From an uncultured Anaerolineales bacterium (GTDB taxonomy: Bacteria; Chloroflexota; Anaerolineae; Anaerolineales; UBA4823): a stretch of DNA of 64,000 nucleotides. Of the stretch, positions 8,129 to 52,519 are shown in pieces (the stretch's first letter is position 1; the number at the start of each line of letters is the position of its first letter). Position numbers and translations under genes: made by a program. The notes under the pieces were generated by a model. The model saw only the letters and a list, made by a program, of their open reading frames with translations, was not told the DNA's origin and searched no databases. The stretch spans positions 1,521 to 65,520 of the forward strand of contig CALFWB010000073.1 of NCBI GenBank assembly GCA_937928795.1. The letters run 5' to 3'.

Positions 8129-8297
8129 CGATCCTTCGGGGGTAAAAACTAACTTGTAATTTTACCATAAATTCGTAACGTACACTCGTTTATCTCCGAA
8201 GCCCGAAGCGAATAGGGCTTTTCAAAAATTAAGTGAGGCTCTTTTCGGAACAGCAAGCTCCGCTTTCGAGTGAAGCGAGCAACGTGTCACTTCAAGC

Positions 8298-8375
8298 GTG
8301 TGCACTCAAAAGTGGTTGGCAACATTGCTTTGTAGGACAACTCAATGAGTTGTCCTACAACTTTTGCGTGGACAC
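8298..8375 (+). repeat. 78-bp MITE-like palindromic element, copy 1
   Basis: GTGTGCACTCAAAAG...TTGTAGGACAACTCA-A-TGAGTTGTCCTACAA...GCGTGGACAC. Near-identical copies lie at 17063-17140, 39847-39924 and, inverted, at 52442-52519. Confidence 0.85.
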
Positions 8376-8846: not shown

Positions 8847-9521
8847 ATGTCTTTCTCCTCCACACTCGCGCGCCTTCCCCATTTCGAGTCCCTCCCTGAG
8901 GAGGTGAAAATCTCGCTCGAGCAAATTGCCATCTGCCAGACCTTCTCTGAGGATCAGGTGATCTATCTGGAAGGTGAGCCAGCAAAATCGGTTTACCTAT
9001 TGGAGAAGGGCTGGGTTAAGGCAGTTCGCCTCTCTCGCAAAGGGCGCGAACAAGCGGTCTTGGTCCTCAGCGCGGTTGATCTCTTTGGGGATGTTGCCCT
9101 TTTCACGACCGGTTTCTATCCAGGCACCGTAATCGCTCTTGAAGATAGCCTTGTCTGGGCATTGCCATCTCTCCGGTTAATGGAGAGAATTGAACGTTAT
9201 CCACAATTAGCACAAGCCTTTCTCCGTCACCTAGCCTTTCGTATCTTGCACCATTTGCAACTGGTAGAAGACCTTTCCTTGCGCAGCGTTGAAGCCCGTT
9301 TGGCAAGAACCTTAGCGCGCTATGCCGAGAATGTTGATGAGCAATGGATTGTACCCCGCCGGCCGTGGGCGACCTATGATGCCATGGCGGTTCGGCTGGG
9401 CACTGTTCGGGATGTATTAAGTCGCGCTTTGAAAACCCTGGAAGGGAAGGGGCTACTCAGGGTAGAAAAGCACCAAATTGTTCTTCTCCAACCACAAGAA
9501 CTTGCCGAATACGAGGGTTAA
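8847..9521 (+). CDS. Crp/Fnr family transcriptional regulator
   Basis: N-terminal cNMP-binding-type beta-roll (YLEGEPAKSVYLLEKGWVK...LFGD) and a C-terminal HTH (MAVRLGTVRDVLSRALKTLEGKG). No N-terminal Cys cluster. TATAAT at 8833-8838 sits only 8 nt from the ATG, so the mRNA may be leaderless. Confidence 0.85.
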   Translation: MSFSSTLARLPHFESLPEEVKISLEQIAICQTFSEDQVIYLEGEPAKSVYLLEKGWVKAVRLSRKGREQAVLVLSAVDLFGDVALFTTGFYPGTVIALEDSLVWALPSLRLMERIERYPQLAQAFLRHLAFRILHHLQLVEDLSLRSVEARLARTLARYAENVDEQWIVPRRPWATYDAMAVRLGTVRDVLSRALKTLEGKGLLRVEKHQIVLLQPQELAEYEG

Positions 9522-9607: not shown

Positions 9608-9952
9608 ATGCTGAACTCGGAGACAACCCTCTCAGATCAGGAATTACGCAAGCGAATTTATCAGGCCTTCGCTGCAGAGGAACAATTGCGGCGGTGTCAC
9701 CTACGGGTGGGTGTGGCAGGCGGTTTTGTCCATCTGGCCGGAAAGGTAAGCACTTTGAGCCTCTATACACTTGCAGAGAAGTTGGCAAAAAGCATTGCGG
9801 GGGTCAAGGGGGTGATCAACCGAATCGAAGCTCCAGGGGCTCCTTCTCCCTCCCGCGTCATTCATCTTGACGATAAAAACCAAACTTCACCCGCTTCGTC
9901 ACGTTCCCCAAGACAATCTCGTCCCCATAAACAAAAGGAGAACAAAAAATGA
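9608..9952 (+). CDS. BON domain-containing protein
   Basis: VGVAGGFVHLAGKVSTLSLYTLAEKLAKSIAGVKGVINRIE matches the BON pattern. The C-terminal tail is low-complexity. Confidence 0.75.
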   Translation: MLNSETTLSDQELRKRIYQAFAAEEQLRRCHLRVGVAGGFVHLAGKVSTLSLYTLAEKLAKSIAGVKGVINRIEAPGAPSPSRVIHLDDKNQTSPASSRSPRQSRPHKQKENKK

Positions 9953-10746
9953 AGGATAATCACAAACTTGGCATTCTGTTTTCCATCCTCGGTATCTTGA
10001 GTGGCATTTTAATCTTTTACCTTTTGGCTTCTCAATACAACCTGTTGATCGCTGTCAAAACCGCCGCTGGGCGGGCAGATGAAGCAGCTTCGGTGCGCAT
10101 CACCTATGCGCTGTTGGGTTGGATTGGCGCAAGCACCACGGCGATTTGGGCGGCCGTTTTGTATGGCTTTATTTACCACGAAAAATGGGCTTGGTTCTGG
10201 GGTGCCGTTGCAGCGACCATCCAATTATTGGCAGGGTTCTTTCCGGCGATTCCCGCTATGGATAGTCGCTTGCCCATGCCAACCTTGAGCGTTTTTGGGA
10301 TTGCCCTCATTCTGTGGTTCGGGATGCTGCTTATTGGAGGAGTGGAGAAAAGAACCATTGCGCTGACCTTTGTAGCCGGCTTAGCGTATGTACTCACATT
10401 TATCGATGGCGTTGCTCCGATTGCCAAATACACTACCTCTCACAATAACCCGTTTTGGAATGGAATGTACGTCATGTCGCAGCAAGTCTCTTGGTGGGGC
10501 GCTGCGGCTTGGGCGATCTTTATCTTCGCCGTGCTGCGCAAAAAATCTTGGGCACTGGCGGTGGGCATCTTTGCTGCGGTCATGTCTATGTTAGCCGGCT
10601 ATCCCCTGGGCCTCTATAACGCTCTGGTTGAAGTACACCGCTTTTCTATGTTCCTCCCTGCTCCTATTCTCAGTACGATCTTGCTGATCTACTTATTGCT
10701 GCCATCCACAAAGGGATTCTTGGATCGAGCAGCAACCGCTTCGTAA
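9949..10746 (+). CDS. hypothetical polytopic membrane protein (265 aa)
   Basis: About 7-8 hydrophobic helices. AAAGGAG lies upstream, and the start overlaps the BON stop (ATGA). Confidence 0.65.
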   Translation: MKDNHKLGILFSILGILSGILIFYLLASQYNLLIAVKTAAGRADEAASVRITYALLGWIGASTTAIWAAVLYGFIYHEKWAWFWGAVAATIQLLAGFFPAIPAMDSRLPMPTLSVFGIALILWFGMLLIGGVEKRTIALTFVAGLAYVLTFIDGVAPIAKYTTSHNNPFWNGMYVMSQQVSWWGAAAWAIFIFAVLRKKSWALAVGIFAAVMSMLAGYPLGLYNALVEVHRFSMFLPAPILSTILLIYLLLPSTKGFLDRAATAS

Positions 10747-10847: not shown

Positions 10848-11474
10848 ATGCACCCAACCCTTCTGGACCGGATCCTCTTGTTGGCTACCGGCTTGGTTGC
10901 CATTTACTTGTTGTGGCGGTTTTGGAGCCGCTATCGCCAAAGTAAACAGCTTTTCGATATCTACTATCTCATGGGCTTTGCTGTCCTGCTGGTATCGGGG
11001 CTTTTGCTCATCTTTCTGGACTATAGCATTTTAGCCTCGCCGCTTGTCCTCACAATAGCCAGCCTGATTCCTCTGGGGATTTCGCTCGGAATTGCTAATG
11101 AATACTTTCCCACGTGGAAGAAAGCCTTTGCTTGGTTTGCCTTAATTGGCTTCTTAGCCATTGCCATCACCAGCATTGCCGGTCTGGCAACCTTGAAGAA
11201 GATTGCCGTGCCACTCTTTCATGGAGTGGCTGGTTTGGTTATCTTTCTGGGACCTTTCCTGGCAAAGCATGCGCCCAAGGGATTTCAATGGGTGGGCGTT
11301 GGCGGCGCGTTGATCGGCATTGGTGGCATTGCCTTAGCCTTTTTGAGCGCCGGTCGACCCTTATTAGGCATTTTTACAGCAGAGCTGGTCTTTACCATTT
11401 TGGCACCGCTCTTGCTCTTAATGACCTTGGCCTTCGCTTGGGGTTTCGTCAAAGATATTCGGGCTGCTGGCTAA
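10848..11474 (+). CDS. hypothetical 6-TM membrane protein, paralog of 15009-15614
   Basis: Shares TLLDR, LLVSGLL, LIPL, EYxPxW, GFLAI, HGVAGLxIFL and GGALIGxxGxxLxFLxxGxPxLG with the 15009 product. AAAGGAG SD. Confidence 0.7.
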   Translation: MHPTLLDRILLLATGLVAIYLLWRFWSRYRQSKQLFDIYYLMGFAVLLVSGLLLIFLDYSILASPLVLTIASLIPLGISLGIANEYFPTWKKAFAWFALIGFLAIAITSIAGLATLKKIAVPLFHGVAGLVIFLGPFLAKHAPKGFQWVGVGGALIGIGGIALAFLSAGRPLLGIFTAELVFTILAPLLLLMTLAFAWGFVKDIRAAG

Positions 11475-11571: not shown

Positions 11572-13107
11572 ATGCATACTTTGGCAAGACGATTGGATTT
11601 CCTCTTTCGTTCGACACGCGGCCTAACCCTCGTGGCAATTGCTGTTGTTTCGATCATCACTGCCTTGTTTGGGATGCTTTCCGGCCCGATGGCTGAATGG
11701 GGCGTGCGCGATTTTGTGGTGCGCGCCTTGGGAATGAAGTTAGTCCAAGCCGAGCGAGAAGGGCGGATCATTATGATTTATCACACCATTGCCAACACGG
11801 TTATTGCCATTGAAGTGTACTTTATCACCCAATTGGTGCGCATGAAACGGCATGAGCAAACCATCATCAACGGCACGGTGACGGCTGGTTACCTAACCGC
11901 AGCGATCTTTGGTTTGCTTTTCGCCTATTGGGGGCATCATTTTGTCTTTCATGGCTTATTCCTGCTCGGAGAATCGCTGATGTTTTTTGCAGGGATTTTG
12001 CTGGCCGTGGCGCTCTGGCCGTGGAAAAAAGAATATCGCTTGCCCGCCAACTCGCCCTACGCGCGCACGAAGCGGGGCGTGGATTTGGAACGGGTTGCCT
12101 TTTTTACCATGGCGGTTGCCACCCTGGTCTCGGCTGCCTTCGGAGCTGTCACTGGTTCCTACTGGGGCAACGGTCACGAAACCTTTTTAGCCGAAGACCT
12201 GATCCGAATTCCTCATAAGACCGATTTACAACGGGCGATTATCGGTCATTTGCACATCATGCTCACCCTCATCGCCATCGCCATCACCTTGATTGTCGGA
12301 CGCTGGAAGGATTTTAAGGGGCTGTTGCACCGAATTGCCATGCCCTTAATGATCAGCGGTACGATCGTCATTACGACTGGCGCGCTCTCGGTCGTCTGGC
12401 TGGAGTGGGCCCATACGATTATATATTTCGGTTCGGTGTTCGTCATGCTGGCGGCGCTCATGTATGTCATTTATGCCTGGGATATGCTCATTAAGGAAGG
12501 CACCCAGGGGGTGAAAAAACCCACCTTAGCACAGAAACTCAAAGCTTTGCTGCGCGATCCGCTGCGCTTTGGTCCCGGCTGGCAGATGGTCTTTATGAAT
12601 TTCACCGTCAGTGGTGTTGGGATTTTCATGGCGGTTAACCTCGGTGAAATTTTCCGCGTGTGGCCGCATCGTGAGGAACGTATCATCCTCACTGGTCACT
12701 GGCATATTCTCTCCGGCTTGATTGCCACAATTATTTTAATGTACTATGCTCATCTTTCCGGCTTGCAAGGCAAGGCTCGCCAGTGGTTCGGTTGGTTGCT
12801 AATCGTCCTTTCCGATCTGGCTTTTGGCGCAGTGACAGTTTTTTCTATGAAACGCCTCTTCGTCAGCGAAGCCAATCAGCAGAATTTGGTCAATTGGACG
12901 ATGCTCCTCGCCGATTTCGGCTTAGCAGCCGTACTTTTGATCTTGGCGCTCTTTTTGCTCTGGCGCCTATATGACCTTTTCCGCGAGCAGGGGATCTGGA
13001 AACATGAATATCAGGAGGAGAAGCGCCAAATTGCTGAGCAGGAGCTGCACGAACAGGAGCAAAGAGCAAAGGAATTGAAAGCTATTCTAAAGGAGGCGGC
13101 TAAATGA
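11572..13107 (+). CDS. uncharacterised 12-TM histidine-rich membrane protein with a C-terminal coiled-coil tail
   Basis: 12 hydrophobic helices. His motifs: IYHTIAN (TM2), GHLHIMLTLIAI (TM6), GHWHILSGLIAT (TM10) and GHHFVFHG before TM4. The tail is charged (EEKRQIAEQELHEQEQRAKELK). AAGGAGG SD. Confidence 0.75.
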   Translation: MHTLARRLDFLFRSTRGLTLVAIAVVSIITALFGMLSGPMAEWGVRDFVVRALGMKLVQAEREGRIIMIYHTIANTVIAIEVYFITQLVRMKRHEQTIINGTVTAGYLTAAIFGLLFAYWGHHFVFHGLFLLGESLMFFAGILLAVALWPWKKEYRLPANSPYARTKRGVDLERVAFFTMAVATLVSAAFGAVTGSYWGNGHETFLAEDLIRIPHKTDLQRAIIGHLHIMLTLIAIAITLIVGRWKDFKGLLHRIAMPLMISGTIVITTGALSVVWLEWAHTIIYFGSVFVMLAALMYVIYAWDMLIKEGTQGVKKPTLAQKLKALLRDPLRFGPGWQMVFMNFTVSGVGIFMAVNLGEIFRVWPHREERIILTGHWHILSGLIATIILMYYAHLSGLQGKARQWFGWLLIVLSDLAFGAVTVFSMKRLFVSEANQQNLVNWTMLLADFGLAAVLLILALFLLWRLYDLFREQGIWKHEYQEEKRQIAEQELHEQEQRAKELKAILKEAAK

Positions 13108-14066
13108 AGAACACCTTCTTGATCTTCATTGCCTTCTTGTCTTTTGCTTTGGGAGGATGCGCTACGGCGCCGGCGATTGGGGCGGTTACGCCACCGTTTA
13201 TAGACCCGGGCATCGATCCCGAAAGCTGGGCGTTGATCCCGGCTGGCACGTTTCCCTACGGCCAACATGATCACCTCACATCTGTTGATTACGATTACGA
13301 AATGATGGTTACCGATGTGACCAACGCCCAATTTGCCCGATTTTTGAACGCTGCCTTAGCGGAGGGCGTTTTGCGCATTGCAACCATCGAGGTCGAGATG
13401 GGCGGTAATGTGACAACCGTTGACGGGGTGAGTGTAGATTACCCCGGCGATGAGTTCCGCGGCCATAAACATGAAGAGGAAATCAAAGCCGGAGAGAAGT
13501 TGGTCATGCCCTTGGAAGAAGATGGCTTGCGCTTGCGTTGGAATGGCACAACCTTTGAGCCGATCGATGAGTATTCCAATCACCCTGCCACCATGGTCAC
13601 TTGGTTTGGGGCGAAGGCTTACTGCGAGTTCTACGGTTGGCGCCTGCCCAGTGAAGTGGAATGGGAAAAAGCGGCGCGTGGCACAGAACTGGTCGATGGC
13701 CGCGGCTTACCTTTCCCTTGGGGCACCGAAATCAAAGGCAACAATGCCAACTATTACTCCTCCTTCGACCTGTTCGAGAAGCTGTTCGGTAAATTGGGCA
13801 ACACCACGCCGGTCGGTTTCTATAATGGCAAGACGTACGATGGCTACCAGACCCTCGATTCACCCAGCCCATACGGCTTGTATGATATGGCCGGCAATGT
13901 TTGGCAATGGACGGGAGATGTTTACCCTGACCAACATTACCGCTATATGCGTGGGGGCAGTTTTTACTCCTACGAAGTCGATCTGCGGGTCTGGAAGCGC
14001 AATAGCGCTCACCCTTCGTATTACAGCCCGCAAGTGGGATTCCGCTGCGCCCGCCCGCTGCAGTGA
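13104..14066 (+). CDS. formylglycine-generating-enzyme (SUMF1/FGE-sulfatase) domain lipoprotein
   Basis: Lipobox FALGGC. FGE-fold motifs: HPATMVTWFGAKAYCEFYGWRLPSEVEWEKAARG, GNVWQWTGD, RGGSF, GFRCARP. The start overlaps the upstream stop (ATGA). Confidence 0.85.
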   Translation: MKNTFLIFIAFLSFALGGCATAPAIGAVTPPFIDPGIDPESWALIPAGTFPYGQHDHLTSVDYDYEMMVTDVTNAQFARFLNAALAEGVLRIATIEVEMGGNVTTVDGVSVDYPGDEFRGHKHEEEIKAGEKLVMPLEEDGLRLRWNGTTFEPIDEYSNHPATMVTWFGAKAYCEFYGWRLPSEVEWEKAARGTELVDGRGLPFPWGTEIKGNNANYYSSFDLFEKLFGKLGNTTPVGFYNGKTYDGYQTLDSPSPYGLYDMAGNVWQWTGDVYPDQHYRYMRGGSFYSYEVDLRVWKRNSAHPSYYSPQVGFRCARPLQ

Positions 14067-14097: not shown

Positions 14098-15012
14098 ATG
14101 GCTAATTTCAAGCCTACTGGAGGAGTAAAAATGAATGGTGGCTCAAGCAGGTTGCAAACGGTGAAGCGTAAGATTCGCCTCTATTTGCCACTCATCAAGA
14201 GCTTACAGACGTTTCTCTTGCTGGCAACCGGGTTAGCTGGCTACATGAGCGCGCGTTGCCCGATCTTTCATTTTCCCACCTTGCTAGGATTAAGCGGCAG
14301 TCTTTTCTTAGCCATCAGTGGCTCAACTGTTTTGAACATGTGGTGGGATCGCGATATCGACGCCAAAATGGGACGCACCCAGAAGCGACCGTTACCTAGC
14401 GGCGAGCTCTCTGCTCAAGAGACTTTGCGTTTAGGGTTGGTTCTCTCGGTGATCGGCATGGCTTGGTCGGCCTTGCTCTCGCCGCTCTATGCCGTGGTCA
14501 TCTTTGCCGGTTGGTTCTTCGATGTGGTTGTCTATACCATTTGGCTCAAGCGGCGTACCTGCTGGAGTATTGTTTGGGGCGGTATTGCTGGGGGGATGCC
14601 AATTTTAGCCGGGCGTGCCTTAGGGACAGGATCAATTGATCTAATCGGCATCCTGCTAACTCTCTCGGTGCTGTTCTGGATCCCCACCCACATCCTCACC
14701 TTTGCCATGCGCTTCTACTCGGATTACCAGAATGCCGGCGTGCCCACTTTCCCTTCTTGTTATGGCTTTCCGGTCACGCGGGCGACCATCGCCGCTTCGA
14801 GTGTGCTAGCAGCCCTGACGATCGGCACAGCCAGCGTTCTGATCGGTGTCCAATGGGGCTTTGTGCGCCTGCTGGCGGTCCTCTCCAGTGGCTTATTGTT
14901 GCTGGCGATCGGGAGTCTGCTGCGCCCCAACGAACAGGTCAATTTTAGCTTGTTCAAATACGCATCTCTCTACATGCTGGCTTCGATGATTTTGTTGTCT
15001 ATTCAACAATGA
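14098..15012 (+). CDS. ctaB: protoheme IX farnesyltransferase (heme O synthase), UbiA family
   Basis: NMWWDRDIDAKMGRTQKRPLPSG is the UbiA/CtaB first Asp-rich motif. About 8-9 TM. An alternative ATG at 14128 has a stronger SD (GGAGGAG). Confidence 0.85.
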   Translation: MANFKPTGGVKMNGGSSRLQTVKRKIRLYLPLIKSLQTFLLLATGLAGYMSARCPIFHFPTLLGLSGSLFLAISGSTVLNMWWDRDIDAKMGRTQKRPLPSGELSAQETLRLGLVLSVIGMAWSALLSPLYAVVIFAGWFFDVVVYTIWLKRRTCWSIVWGGIAGGMPILAGRALGTGSIDLIGILLTLSVLFWIPTHILTFAMRFYSDYQNAGVPTFPSCYGFPVTRATIAASSVLAALTIGTASVLIGVQWGFVRLLAVLSSGLLLLAIGSLLRPNEQVNFSLFKYASLYMLASMILLSIQQ

Positions 15013-15614
15013 AACTCACTCTTCTTGATCGCTTGCTATTTCTTTCCACCGCTCTTCTGACTTCTTATCAGATTGCGGTTGGCATCGAAGGCTTAGGGAG
15101 CATCCCGATTTTTGTCTATACTCTCGGCTTCGGTGCCCTCCTGGTTTCGGGTTTGCTGATCTTGATCTTGGGTTTTGAGGTTTTGCGCAGCGCGTTGGTT
15201 GTGGTTGTTGCGACCCTGATCCCATTGAGCCTAGCCTGCGGCATGGTGTGGGAATATCTGCCGGCCTGGCGGGGAGTCTATGTTGTCTATGCAGTGGTTG
15301 GCTTCCTAGCAATTGGCTTGAGCCGCTTCGCCCGCATGTCGCCTCAGATTGCAACGCTAATTGTAGCTTTTGTCCATGGGGTGGCGGGCTTGACCATTTT
15401 CCTTTTACCGATCGGCGTGGTTGCAGCTCAACGGACGGCAGCCGGCTTCCTTTTGGTCAGCCTCGGAGGGGCATTGATCGGGCTGATGGGTTTACTACTT
15501 TCTTTTTTGCGCATGGGTTCACCCGTTCTGGGTCAAGAAAAGTTACTCAGGGCGTTTCCTTTGCTCTTTTTGATGATTACAGTGGCGTATGTATTGGGTT
15601 TCAATTGGCGGTGA
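15009..15614 (+). CDS. hypothetical 6-TM membrane protein, paralog of 10848-11474
   Basis: Motifs shared with the 10848 product are listed there. The start overlaps the ctaB stop (ATGA). Confidence 0.7.
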   Translation: MKLTLLDRLLFLSTALLTSYQIAVGIEGLGSIPIFVYTLGFGALLVSGLLILILGFEVLRSALVVVVATLIPLSLACGMVWEYLPAWRGVYVVYAVVGFLAIGLSRFARMSPQIATLIVAFVHGVAGLTIFLLPIGVVAAQRTAAGFLLVSLGGALIGLMGLLLSFLRMGSPVLGQEKLLRAFPLLFLMITVAYVLGFNWR

Positions 15615-15871: not shown

Positions 15872-16582
15872 ATGAATCCAATTCCTGGATGGGCAAAAGG
15901 ATTGCGCAATCTAGCTATAGTCCTCATGGGCATCACAACCTTTTTCACCCTTTCCAGCGGCGCTGGCACAGTTTGCGTCGCCCTAGCAGCCGAGCGCTTT
16001 GGGGAAGCCATGGCACCCCTTGTCCCTTACAAATGGGTCTATCTTCTCTTCGTCATCCTAACCCTTGTAGTGGGCGTGATGGGGGTACGCGCTATCGTGA
16101 TGTTGGTGCGCAGGCGAAAAGGCGCATTTCGCTTTACAATCTCAACCTTGATTGCCGGCATTCTGGTTGGGGGAATTCATATCATCGTTTCTCGCGCCCT
16201 GCGTGGTAAATCGATGCCCACTGATCCGGTGGTGTACACGACCTTACTGACATTGGTGCTCTTCCTAATCTTACGCTTGCCTCCGCTGCGAGAGAAGATC
16301 GATTTTGAGAAAGGAGAACAAGGAGCTCAGACAAATACCCTTGCTGCTGCGATCACTCTCCTCGCTTGCGGGATTCTAGCCCTAGCCATCCCCGTCTGGG
16401 CTGGGCCTTCCCATACCTTTGACTCCACTGGGATCAATTGGGCGAATGCATGGGCAACTTTCATAAATGCTTTTGGAGCGCTCCTATGTCTTGCAGGTCT
16501 GGTTATCTTGGTCGATCAAAAATACCGCTTAGGGCGATTCCGGAATAGAATCCAGTATCAAATTCGGGTACCCTTGCCCTAG
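15872..16582 (+). CDS. hypothetical polytopic membrane protein (236 aa)
   Basis: About 6 hydrophobic helices. GAAAGGAGG SD 6 nt upstream. Confidence 0.6.
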   Translation: MNPIPGWAKGLRNLAIVLMGITTFFTLSSGAGTVCVALAAERFGEAMAPLVPYKWVYLLFVILTLVVGVMGVRAIVMLVRRRKGAFRFTISTLIAGILVGGIHIIVSRALRGKSMPTDPVVYTTLLTLVLFLILRLPPLREKIDFEKGEQGAQTNTLAAAITLLACGILALAIPVWAGPSHTFDSTGINWANAWATFINAFGALLCLAGLVILVDQKYRLGRFRNRIQYQIRVPLP

Positions 16583-17010
16583 TCTGCCTCGTTCTGCCAA
16601 TCTCTCTTGCGGCGCAGCGCTTTGATCTGACTGCGCCGCCGCTTAGCGTTTAATCGCGCTTGGCGGGCGGCGGCGCTGGGTTGAGTAGGGTGGCGTGGTT
16701 TTGGCTTTTGAGCCGCCTTTTGCAGGAGCAGGATCAATTGCTCCAGTGCTTCGCGGCGGTTTTGTTCTTGGGTGCGATGGCGTTGAGCTTGGATGACCAA
16801 CTCACCCTGGAGATTGATCCGTTTGCCCGCCAAATTCAGCAAGCGCTCTTTCACCTCTGGGGGGATGTTTTCGTTTTGGAGGACATTAAGACGTAATTGA
16901 ACCGCGCTGGCAACCTTGTTGACGTTCTGTCCACCAGGACCTGCGGCGCGCACGAAATCCCATTGCAGATCTTCTTCATCAATTGAGAGATGGGGTGCTA
17001 TCCAGATCAT
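16579..17010 (-). CDS. arfB: alternative ribosome-rescue factor ArfB (peptidyl-tRNA hydrolase, class I RF domain)
   Basis: GPGGQNVNKV GGQ motif and a basic C-terminal tail (KPRHPT...RRRSQIKALRRKR). I trimmed the start to the ATG at 17010 (MIWIAPHLSIDE). Confidence 0.85.
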   Translation of the reverse strand: MIWIAPHLSIDEEDLQWDFVRAAGPGGQNVNKVASAVQLRLNVLQNENIPPEVKERLLNLAGKRINLQGELVIQAQRHRTQEQNRREALEQLILLLQKAAQKPKPRHPTQPSAAARQARLNAKRRRSQIKALRRKRDWQNEAD

Positions 17011-17062
17011 TGGGGCAAGTTTACCACCGATCTGGTTTTCCTTCCCCCTTTGAGCGTTTCCC

Positions 17063-17140
17063 GTGTGCACTCAAAAGTTGTTGGCAACATGGCTTTGTAG
17101 GACAACTCAATGAGTTGTCCTACAACTTTTGCGTGGACAT
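17063..17140 (+). repeat. 78-bp MITE-like palindromic element, copy 2
   Basis: Same sequence as copy 1 with a few substitutions. It lies 53 nt upstream of the arfB start. Confidence 0.85.
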
Positions 17141-17439: not shown

Positions 17440-17533
17440 GGGAGTGGTTGAGTCCCGGTGGGTTCCCCGGTCTTCAAAACCGGTGGCGGGTCGCGTTGCG
17501 GGCCGCGGTGGGTTCGACTCCCATCCACTCCCG
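17440..17533 (+). tRNA. selC: tRNA-Sec (anticodon UCA)
   Basis: Folded by hand. 8-bp acceptor stem GGGAGTGG/CCACTCCC. 6-bp D stem GAGTCC/GGGTTC with 4-nt loop CGGT. Anticodon stem CCGGT/ACCGG with loop CTTCAAA. Long variable arm of about 24 nt. T arm GTGGG-TTCGACT-CCCAT. Discriminator G. No encoded CCA. The D loop, anticodon loop and T loop match E. coli selC. Confidence 0.88.
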
Positions 17534-39846: not shown

Positions 39847-39924
39847 GTGTGCACTCAAAAGTTGTTGGCAACATTGCTTTGTAGGACAACTCATTGAGTT
39901 GTCCTACAACTTCTGCGTGGACAC
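39847..39924 (+). repeat. 78-bp MITE-like palindromic element, copy 3
   Basis: Lies in the divergent intergenic region between 39810 (-) and 39969 (+). The central base of the palindrome is T instead of A. Confidence 0.85.
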
Positions 39925-52441: not shown

Positions 52442-52519
52442 GTGTCCACGCAAAAGTTGTAGGACAACTCAATGAGTTATCCTACAAAGCAATGTTGCCA
52501 ACAATTTTTGAGTGCACAC
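52442..52519 (-). repeat. 78-bp MITE-like palindromic element, copy 4 (inverted orientation)
   Basis: GTGTCCACGCAAAAGTTGTAGGACAACTCAATGAGTTATCCTACAAAGCAATGTTGCCAACAATTTTTGAGTGCACAC. Confidence 0.85.

Follow-up and report, generated by a model that had tools for sequence, protein, structure and literature searches.

A widespread 12-helix membrane protein encoded near heme O synthase in Anaerolineales and Asgard archaea has a predicted fold like that of heme-copper oxidase subunit I

Here we describe a gene cluster in a 64,000-nucleotide stretch of DNA from an uncultured Anaerolineales bacterium (contig CALFWB010000073.1; hereafter the window). At its center is a gene at positions 11572-13107 whose product is a membrane protein with 12 transmembrane (TM) helices. 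In its AlphaFold2 model, this 12-TM protein is folded like subunit I of the heme-copper oxidases (HCOs), the enzymes of aerobic respiration and nitric oxide (NO) reduction. The protein is built from three copies of a four-helix module, seven histidines are invariant in its family, and a heme O synthase gene accompanies it in both bacteria and Asgard archaea. On balance, we lean towards the view that it forms the core subunit of a membrane redox enzyme that is HCO-like, depends on heme O and has not been described before.

An earlier note on this DNA, made from the sequence alone, had proposed an open reading frame for a protein with 12 TM helices, a series of His motifs and a charged coiled-coil tail. 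The open reading frame is real and encodes 511 residues, and every motif that had been named lies in the protein where the note had placed it. The motifs of TM2, TM6 and TM10 are IYHTIANTVIAIEV (residues 69-82), AIIGHLHIMLTLIAIAITL (222-240) and ILTGHWHILSGLIATIILM (372-390), respectively, and the other His motifs are GHHFVFHG (121-128), WAHT (279-282) and YYAH (391-394). Kyte-Doolittle hydropathy and DSSP assignment on the AlphaFold2 model (mean pLDDT 91.9, pTM 0.92) agree on the 12 TM helices, and the charged C-terminal tail forms a helix in the model. This tail is specific to the Anaerolineales clade, with none in the aligned Asgard homologs. Lys/Arg-rich loops alternate between the two sides of the membrane, which by the positive-inside rule predicts that the N- and C-termini are both cytoplasmic. 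This predicted topology would put all seven invariant His on the P side, within the outer third of the membrane.

The note had further suspected an internal repeat of three times four helices, and this repeat gained statistical support once diverse homologs were used. We aligned 77 family members from Bacteria and Archaea, with identities down to ~22% (alignment A5), and compared slices of the alignment using hhalign. Unit 2 (residues 161-325) matches unit 3 (326-475) with an E-value of 1.7e-9 (Prob 96%, 107 columns), unit 1 (1-160) matches unit 3 with an E-value of 8.6e-6 (Prob 83%, 84 columns), and unit 1 matches unit 2 with an E-value of 5.3e-4 (Prob 31%, 77 columns). Controls with reversed sequences gave E-values of 0.03-0.15. 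When only 43 close homologs were used, the signal was much weaker and the pair of units 2 and 3 alone was detectable (E=3.6e-4). The unit alignments superimpose the His residues of TM2, TM6 and TM10, and H127 of unit 1 falls on H281 of unit 2. Together, the E-values and the matched His residues indicate that the 12-TM protein is a triplication of a four-helix module. The triplication is thus readable in the sequences of this family; in a ten-sequence alignment of canonical HCO subunit I, the same test detected no internal similarity (E-values 0.03-0.69).

The residues invariant in all 77 members are Y70, H71, G106, H127, E208, H226, H228, G263, H281, G287, G350, E369, H376, W377, H378 and L380. 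Of the seven invariant His, TM2 carries one, TM6 and TM10 carry an HxH pair each, and the outer turns TM3/4 and TM7/8 have one apiece. Among the further His residues to which the note had drawn attention, H127 (in GHHFVFHG) and H281 (in WAHT) are therefore invariant, whereas H122/H123 and H394 (in YYAH) are not conserved in the 77-member alignment. The latter, together with H202, H215, H253 and H366, are clade-specific. The same alignment has no conserved His in TM7 (residues 251-275), the single H281 lying only at the TM7/8 turn, and none in TM12. The invariant E208 sits in an FLAED loop, and E208, E369, R65 and R362 are conserved charged residues at the outer ends of helices.

HCO subunit I has 12 helices in a pseudo-threefold arrangement, with metal-ligand His residues in helices II, VI, VII and X and an HxH motif in helix X. 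When the AlphaFold2 model was searched against the PDB with Foldseek, all matches with a probability of ~1 were HCO subunit I (overall probability 0.97-1.00). The best matches were structures of Thermus thermophilus ba3 oxidase (PDB 3S3B, 1XME and 3S8F), with an E-value of 2e-3 and TM-scores of 0.55/0.52. They were followed, at TM-scores of 0.41-0.51, by aa3 oxidases (Rhodobacter, Paracoccus, bovine and yeast), E. coli bo3, a cbb3 oxidase and Pseudomonas cNOR. TM-scores over the HCO families ranged from 0.41 to 0.56, compared with 0.1-0.26 for other polytopic membrane proteins such as complex I antiporter-like subunits and G protein-coupled receptors (GPCRs). At the level of the predicted fold, the protein therefore has the 12-TM core and the pseudo-threefold arrangement of HCOs. 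As in HCO subunit I, the topology is N-in/C-in, and the central helices 2, 6 and 10 bear His residues near the P side. The earlier note had left the choice between a very divergent relative of HCO subunit I and an independent 12-TM heme- or metal-binding scaffold. The fold favors the first, since HCOs are the only consistent match in the PDB.

At the sequence level, the 12-TM protein has no Pfam, NCBIfam or PDB match when searched as a single sequence, and no PDB match when searched as a profile. Chance-level matches to OAD_gamma, DUF5654, dynein LC8 and Bcl-x were dismissed as noise. For a direct comparison, we built a profile from ten HCO subunits I, mostly of the A-family, taken from E. coli and plasmid records. 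Over the whole length, the alignment of TM5-8 to HCO helices IX-XII equals or surpasses that of TM9-12. Since the internal repeat confounds the whole-length register in this way, we compared the family slice by slice and used reversed sequences as controls. Unit 2 matches HCO helices IX-XII with an E-value of 6.7e-5 and unit 3 with an E-value of 2.8e-3, against at least 0.09 for the reversed controls. The HxH motifs of TM6 (H226/H228) and TM10 (H376/H378) both align on H419/H421 of helix X of CyoB, which are the ligands of its two hemes. The GHWHIL segment of TM10 aligns with AHFHNV of CyoB, and the HxH of helix X is thus recovered at the sequence level.

The genomic context links the family to heme O. 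The heme O synthase (CtaB/CyoE) that the note had seen downstream is confirmed by TIGR01473 and lies two genes downstream of the 12-TM gene (Table 1). Among loci from GTDB genomes with enough downstream sequence, 65 of 67 have a heme O synthase at most 6 kb away. In four of five Asgard loci (Hod-, Thor- and Heimdallarchaeota), the synthase directly follows the 12-TM gene. The Asgard enzymes score 204-219 bits on TIGR01473, at or just below its cut-off and far above other UbiA subfamilies. This link to heme O, much stronger than the note could have told, thus holds in two domains of life. It is also common to the 12-TM family and the E. coli oxidase operon cyoABCDE, within which cyoE sits. Neither the window nor ~1.2 Mb of sequence flanking ~85 loci encodes a canonical HCO subunit I. 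To our knowledge, heme O serves only as a cofactor, or the precursor of a cofactor, of HCOs. Given the HCO-like fold, the His residues on three central helices and the family's own heme O synthase, the simplest reading is that of a heme-O redox enzyme.

Tight adjacency to heme O synthase, as in ctaA-ctaB, could also mean that the protein processes or handles heme O, either as a heme-modifying enzyme like CtaA/Cox15 or as a chaperone or insertase to which CtaB hands over heme O. The ctaA gene typically adjoins the heme O synthase gene, and HOS-HAS synteny has been reported in 75-92% of cases for several HAS types (PMC12808453). Cytochrome c maturation genes (CcmF-like, CcmB and CcmA-like) near the module in two Asgard loci (L103 and L104) would suit such a role as well. 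CtaA/Cox15 is likewise a polytopic heme protein of repeated four-helix units with His on the second and fourth helices near the outer face; in B. subtilis CtaA, the His residues are in TM2, 4, 6 and 8. The pairs H71/H127 and H226-H228/H281 recall this pattern. However, CtaA has eight TM helices (two times four) rather than 12, its family profile PF02628 is unmatched in all 77 members at E≤10, and hhalign of alignment A5 against CtaA gave an E-value of 0.17 over 17 columns, with a CtaA sequence validated at 147 bits. HCO subunit I dominates the Foldseek result, and no CtaA structure is among the 50 matches listed. An HCO client to which heme O could be passed is encoded near none of the ~85 loci. 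We therefore rate a heme-O-processing function as unlikely, and a CtaA/Cox15 identity as unsupported by either sequence or fold.

Another family that invites comparison is NnrS (PF05940), a 12-TM protein that contains heme and copper and acts in the NO stress response. It resembles the 12-TM family in the number of helices, in the proposed heme or metal content and in an association with nitrosative stress regulons. PF05940 is unmatched in all 77 members at E≤10, and an NnrS identity has no support at the profile level.

The proteins encoded next to the 12-TM protein are a 7-TM protein and a lipoprotein with an FGE-sulfatase fold, unlike the subunit II, NorC or cupredoxin partners of HCOs. The start of the FGE-fold gene overlaps the stop of the 12-TM gene, and the two are translationally coupled in the window. 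Across GTDB loci, the FGE-fold gene is directly downstream in 79 of 80, with a median gap of 90 nt. Seven contigs of a Gram-negative-type organism carry a natural fusion (P0122), a single chain of 785 residues in which an additional TM helix joins the 12-TM protein to an FGE-sulfatase domain. The additional helix would place the FGE domain outside while the C-terminus of the 12-TM part remains inside, in keeping with the topology of HCOs. The fusion gene has a UbiA gene 4.5 kb upstream and DUF423 and Fer4-like genes on its downstream side. The FGE-fold lipoprotein lacks the Cys pair with which catalytic FGE binds Cu: the only conserved Cys among its 77 orthologs are C19 of the lipobox and C315 in a GFRC motif. 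Its fold and lipoprotein signal are common to accessory lipoproteins of the GldJ/GldK/PorK and NirV types. What sets it apart from these is its coupling to the 12-TM protein, which in P0122 takes the form of a fusion.

The 7-TM partner, which we call TM208, has a paralog, TM201, in the same cluster, and both carry an invariant His (Table 1). A search with the TM208 family returned 3,328 matches, spread over Asgard archaea and Anaerolineales exactly as the 12-TM protein is. A TM208 homolog with 30-34% identity and the invariant His is directly upstream in three of the four Asgard loci linked to heme O synthase. The other two Asgard loci have a gene for a 225-235-aa product farther upstream, beyond the HxlR-family regulator gene described below. 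The AlphaFold2 model of TM208 (pLDDT 94) has seven helices. The TM208/TM201 family has no Pfam, NCBIfam or PDB relative. A fold like that of HCO subunit II or III was considered for the 7-TM partner, but Foldseek returned only generic GPCR/rhodopsin matches (E ~0.1), which are uninformative.

Several observations weigh against kinship with HCOs and against a function like theirs. Whole-length hhalign of the family against HCOs reaches a probability of only 15-32%, the best Foldseek E-value is a modest 2e-3, and the HCO profile is small, with its ten mostly A-family sequences. PF00115 (COX1) is unmatched by the window protein at E≤1 and by all 77 members at E≤10. In place of the CuB/FeB ligands of HCOs, namely a His in helix VI and an HH pair in helix VII, TM6 has H226/H228 and TM7 has no conserved His; with the helix-VII HH absent, an HCO-type three-His CuB site cannot form. 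Neither COX2, cupredoxin, NorC nor cytochrome c was found among the neighboring genes by Pfam and NCBIfam or in the Asgard loci, so a subunit II is missing there; together with the lack of a recognizable quinol site, this leaves no known electron input. H71 can be set against the HxH motifs in more than one register, since an ungapped alignment pairs it with H376 and a gapped one with H378, and the assignment of hemes to individual His residues is therefore a guess. An adjacent heme O synthase is absent for some members of the family (L009, L019, P0342, P0174 and L104). A GHPEVY-type motif with the Tyr cross-link was also not found in the 12-TM protein. The absence of a PF00115 match, of a conserved TM7 His and of subunit II bears out the judgment of the note that this is not a standard oxidase. 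The family shares the predicted HCO fold yet lacks several defining features of the HCO superfamily.

Such differences raise the question of whether the resemblance arose by convergence, with a 12-TM heme or metal scaffold produced by a triplication of its own. Its function could then be an unrelated one, such as carrying electrons across the membrane and, through the FGE-fold lipoprotein, on to an acceptor outside the cell. The repeat is clear in the 12-TM family (E=1.7e-9) and undetectable in the HCO alignment used (E≥0.03), the sequence similarity to HCOs is marginal, and the partner proteins are entirely different, all of which would fit convergence. So would the His set: HCO subunit I has six invariant His and the 12-TM family seven, with single His residues at the TM3/4 and TM7/8 turns, a second HxH in TM6 and none in TM7. 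On the other side, the model matches all HCO families, and nothing else, with TM-scores that reach 0.5-0.56 over ~520 alignment columns, and the spacing and helix position of the HxH equal those of helix X. The known use of heme O, which established knowledge confines to HCOs, also argues against an independent origin. We consider convergence quite unlikely and homology with HCO subunit I, for which the sequence signal is weak, plausible.

A transporter or channel for a metal, heme or a small molecule, with the conserved His residues lining a permeation path, would account for a 12-TM architecture, which is common in transporters, and for the conserved charged residues E208, E369, R65 and R362 at the outer helix ends. 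Foldseek, however, gives no MFS, APC or other transporter fold, and the best polytopic match outside the HCOs has a TM-score of at most 0.26. Paired HxH motifs on central helices and an obligatory linkage to a heme-cofactor synthase are not features of transporters either. We regard this possibility as very improbable.

Returning to a heme-O redox enzyme, the analysis shows an HCO-like fold in the model, a repeat within the sequence, conserved His residues, a shared gene order and a natural fusion, whereas the nature of the cofactors and their ligands, the assembly of a complex, its substrate and its source of electrons are our inferences. The central helices TM2, TM6 and TM10 would carry their His residues near the outer face, like HCO helices II, VI and X. 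By analogy with HCOs, a low-spin heme may be held between H71 in TM2 and H378 in TM10, and a high-spin heme O, the farnesylated product of the co-encoded synthase, may have H376 in TM10 as its proximal ligand. In a non-significant profile alignment, H71 lies ~6 residues from the position of CyoB H106. H228 and H281, possibly with E208, could form a distal pocket or a non-heme metal site that replaces the three-His CuB site. The third "pore" is empty in HCOs; here it would contain an extra pair, H226 and H127, at the symmetry-related position, and this pair may bind an additional heme or metal. As a lead only, the linear positions of the ligands of Thermus ba3 oxidase, which we take to be 72, 233, 282/283 and 384/386, are close to 71, 226/228, 281 and 376/378 here; on this analogy, H281 at the TM7/8 turn could stand in place of one helix-VII His. 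The 7-TM partner with its invariant His may be part of the complex as an accessory subunit. In bacteria, the extracytoplasmic FGE-fold lipoprotein may serve as an accessory subunit where HCOs have subunit II.

The most likely activity of such an enzyme would be the reduction and scavenging of O2 or NO in mostly anaerobic organisms. There are hints of a response to O2, NO or oxidants in the gene neighborhoods: a Crp/Fnr-family regulator upstream of the cluster in the window, an HxlR-family regulator on the opposite strand upstream in four of the five Asgard loci, and genes for a hybrid-cluster protein, hemerythrin and AhpC near a stand-alone member of the family. A further step is possible, if tentative. 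The family may be a surviving sister lineage or early offshoot of HCOs in which one can still read the triplication of a His-bearing four-helix module that gave rise to the pseudo-threefold HCO subunit I. It would then be a heme-O terminal reductase of O2 or NO working without CuA, a cupredoxin or a three-His CuB site. Such a terminal reductase would explain the presence of heme O synthase in those Asgard archaea and Anaerolineae that count as anaerobes.

These proteins touch on two open questions, namely how the 12-helix pseudo-threefold catalytic subunit of HCOs originated and which of the two reactions, the reduction of O2 or that of NO, is the older. With its HCO-like predicted fold, a readable threefold repeat and a different ligand set, this large family would provide a concrete outgroup or intermediate for the origin of HCOs. 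Metagenome-assembled genomes (MAGs) of Hod-, Kari-, Heimdall-, Thor- and Odinarchaeota carry the family with its own heme O synthase, and the oxygen metabolism of Asgard archaea is currently debated with regard to eukaryogenesis. According to a preprint, all Heimdallarchaeia lineages encode heme O biosynthesis. The 12-TM family is a candidate user of this heme O. The cluster amounts to a testable module of four to six genes for heterologous expression. Our literature search returned no account of the 12-TM family, of an association between FGE and HCO proteins, or of a triplication detectable at the sequence level in HCO-like proteins.

To analyze the distribution of the family, we used the 12-TM protein as a query in a protein search, which returned more than 3,233 clusters, all labelled "hypothetical" and mostly from Anaerolineales MAGs. 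At least 528 loci were confirmed among the species genomes of GTDB. Clustering at 50% left 336 representatives, among them several full-length divergent branches. These branches are largely from Asgard archaea (labelled Hodarchaeales, Kariarchaeaceae, Heimdall-, Thor- and Odinarchaeota and "Promethearchaeota"), and they also include a shorter Anaerolineae subfamily. One member of this subfamily (P0342, at locus L099) has 445 residues and keeps all seven His, with heme O synthase not adjacent. It is surrounded by genes for hemerythrin, ferredoxins, AhpC/peroxiredoxin, nitroreductase and the hybrid-cluster protein (Prismane). Near-identical clusters, with 67-72% protein identity, occur in MAGs labelled Bacteroidota, Spirochaetales, Calditrichaceae and Melioribacteraceae (L027, L068, L071, L077, L078, L080 and L081). 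They could reflect horizontal transfer or binning errors.

The features of the cluster are collected in Table 1. In the upstream region, the Crp/Fnr regulator and the BON-domain protein are kept in the closest relatives only.

Table 1 Features of the gene cluster in the window and of related loci. Coordinates are window positions unless residues (aa) or another locus are given.
Feature	Coordinates	Strand	Basis and remarks
Crp/Fnr-family regulator	8847-9521	+	Pfam cNMP_binding and HTH_Crp_2; 33/84 loci
BON-domain protein	9608-9952	+	Pfam BON; 10/84 loci
265-aa membrane protein, unknown family	9949-10746	+	No family match; variably present upstream; 41/84 loci
7-TM partner TM208	10848-11474	+	Invariant His125; 65/84 loci
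12-TM HCO-subunit-I-like protein	11572-13107	+	511 aa; open reading frame, hydropathy, AlphaFold2 model, Foldseek
Repeat unit 1 (aa 1-160, TM1-4)	11572-12051	+	Invariant Y70-H71 in TM2, H127 at the TM3/4 turn
TM helices of unit 1	aa 15-35 (TM1), 59-88 (TM2), 93-119 (TM3), 124-147 (TM4)		
H71 codon	11782-11784	+	Repeat unit 1
H127 codon	11950-11952	+	Repeat unit 1
Repeat unit 2 (aa 161-325, TM5-8)	12052-12546	+	Invariant E208, GH226-L-H228 in TM6, H281 at the TM7/8 turn
TM helices of unit 2	aa 172-198 (TM5), 218-245 (TM6), 251-275 (TM7), 280-310 (TM8)		
H226 codon	12247-12249	+	Repeat unit 2
H228 codon	12253-12255	+	Repeat unit 2
H281 codon	12412-12414	+	Repeat unit 2
Repeat unit 3 (aa 326-475, TM9-12)	12547-12996	+	Invariant E369 and GH376-W377-H378 in TM10
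TM helices of unit 3	aa 330-355 (TM9), 366-395 (TM10), 400-425 (TM11), 433-470 (TM12)		
H376 codon	12697-12699	+	Repeat unit 3
H378 codon	12703-12705	+	Repeat unit 3
Charged helical tail, predicted cytoplasmic	12997-13107 (aa 476-511)	+	DSSP helix aa 475-510 on the AlphaFold2 model; alignment
FGE-sulfatase-fold lipoprotein	13104-14066	+	PF03781, E=4.7e-39; lipobox LGGC19
Heme O synthase (CtaB/CyoE)	14098-15012	+	TIGR01473, 221.1 bits against a cut-off of 210.3
TM201, paralog of TM208	15009-15614	+	38-40% identity to TM208; invariant His125; 67/84 loci
236-aa membrane protein, unknown family	15872-16582	+	No family match; frequent last gene of the cluster; 47/84 loci
RF-1-domain protein (ArfB-like peptidyl-tRNA hydrolase)	16579-17070	-	Converges on the cluster end
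Selenocysteine tRNA	17440-17532	+	Rfam RF01852, 75.5 bits against a gathering score of 47
78-nt direct repeat, two copies	8297-8374; 17062-17139		97% identical
Further palindrome copies, intergenic	39879-39909; 52457-52487		
HxlR-family regulator genes, Asgard loci	L086 6600-6902; L087 6660-7079; L103 4136-4591; L104 4263-4742		Opposite strand to the cluster
12-TM/FGE fusion (P0122)	L101 6001-8358; L102 4023-6380		785 aa
Shorter subfamily member (P0342)	L099 8001-9338		445 aa

The whole gene cluster is bracketed by the two copies of a 78-nt direct repeat, each of which holds a 31-nt palindrome with a perfect stem, TTGTAGGACAACTCAATGAGTTGTCCTACAA. The same palindrome recurs at two other intergenic sites of the window, where none would be expected by chance. 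The repeats are therefore a dispersed element like a repetitive extragenic palindrome (REP), and their role as a boundary of the cluster was ruled out. The gene for the RF-1-domain protein that converges on the cluster end is syntenic in related contigs, where its product has 143 residues. A selenocysteine tRNA gene lies just downstream of the cluster.

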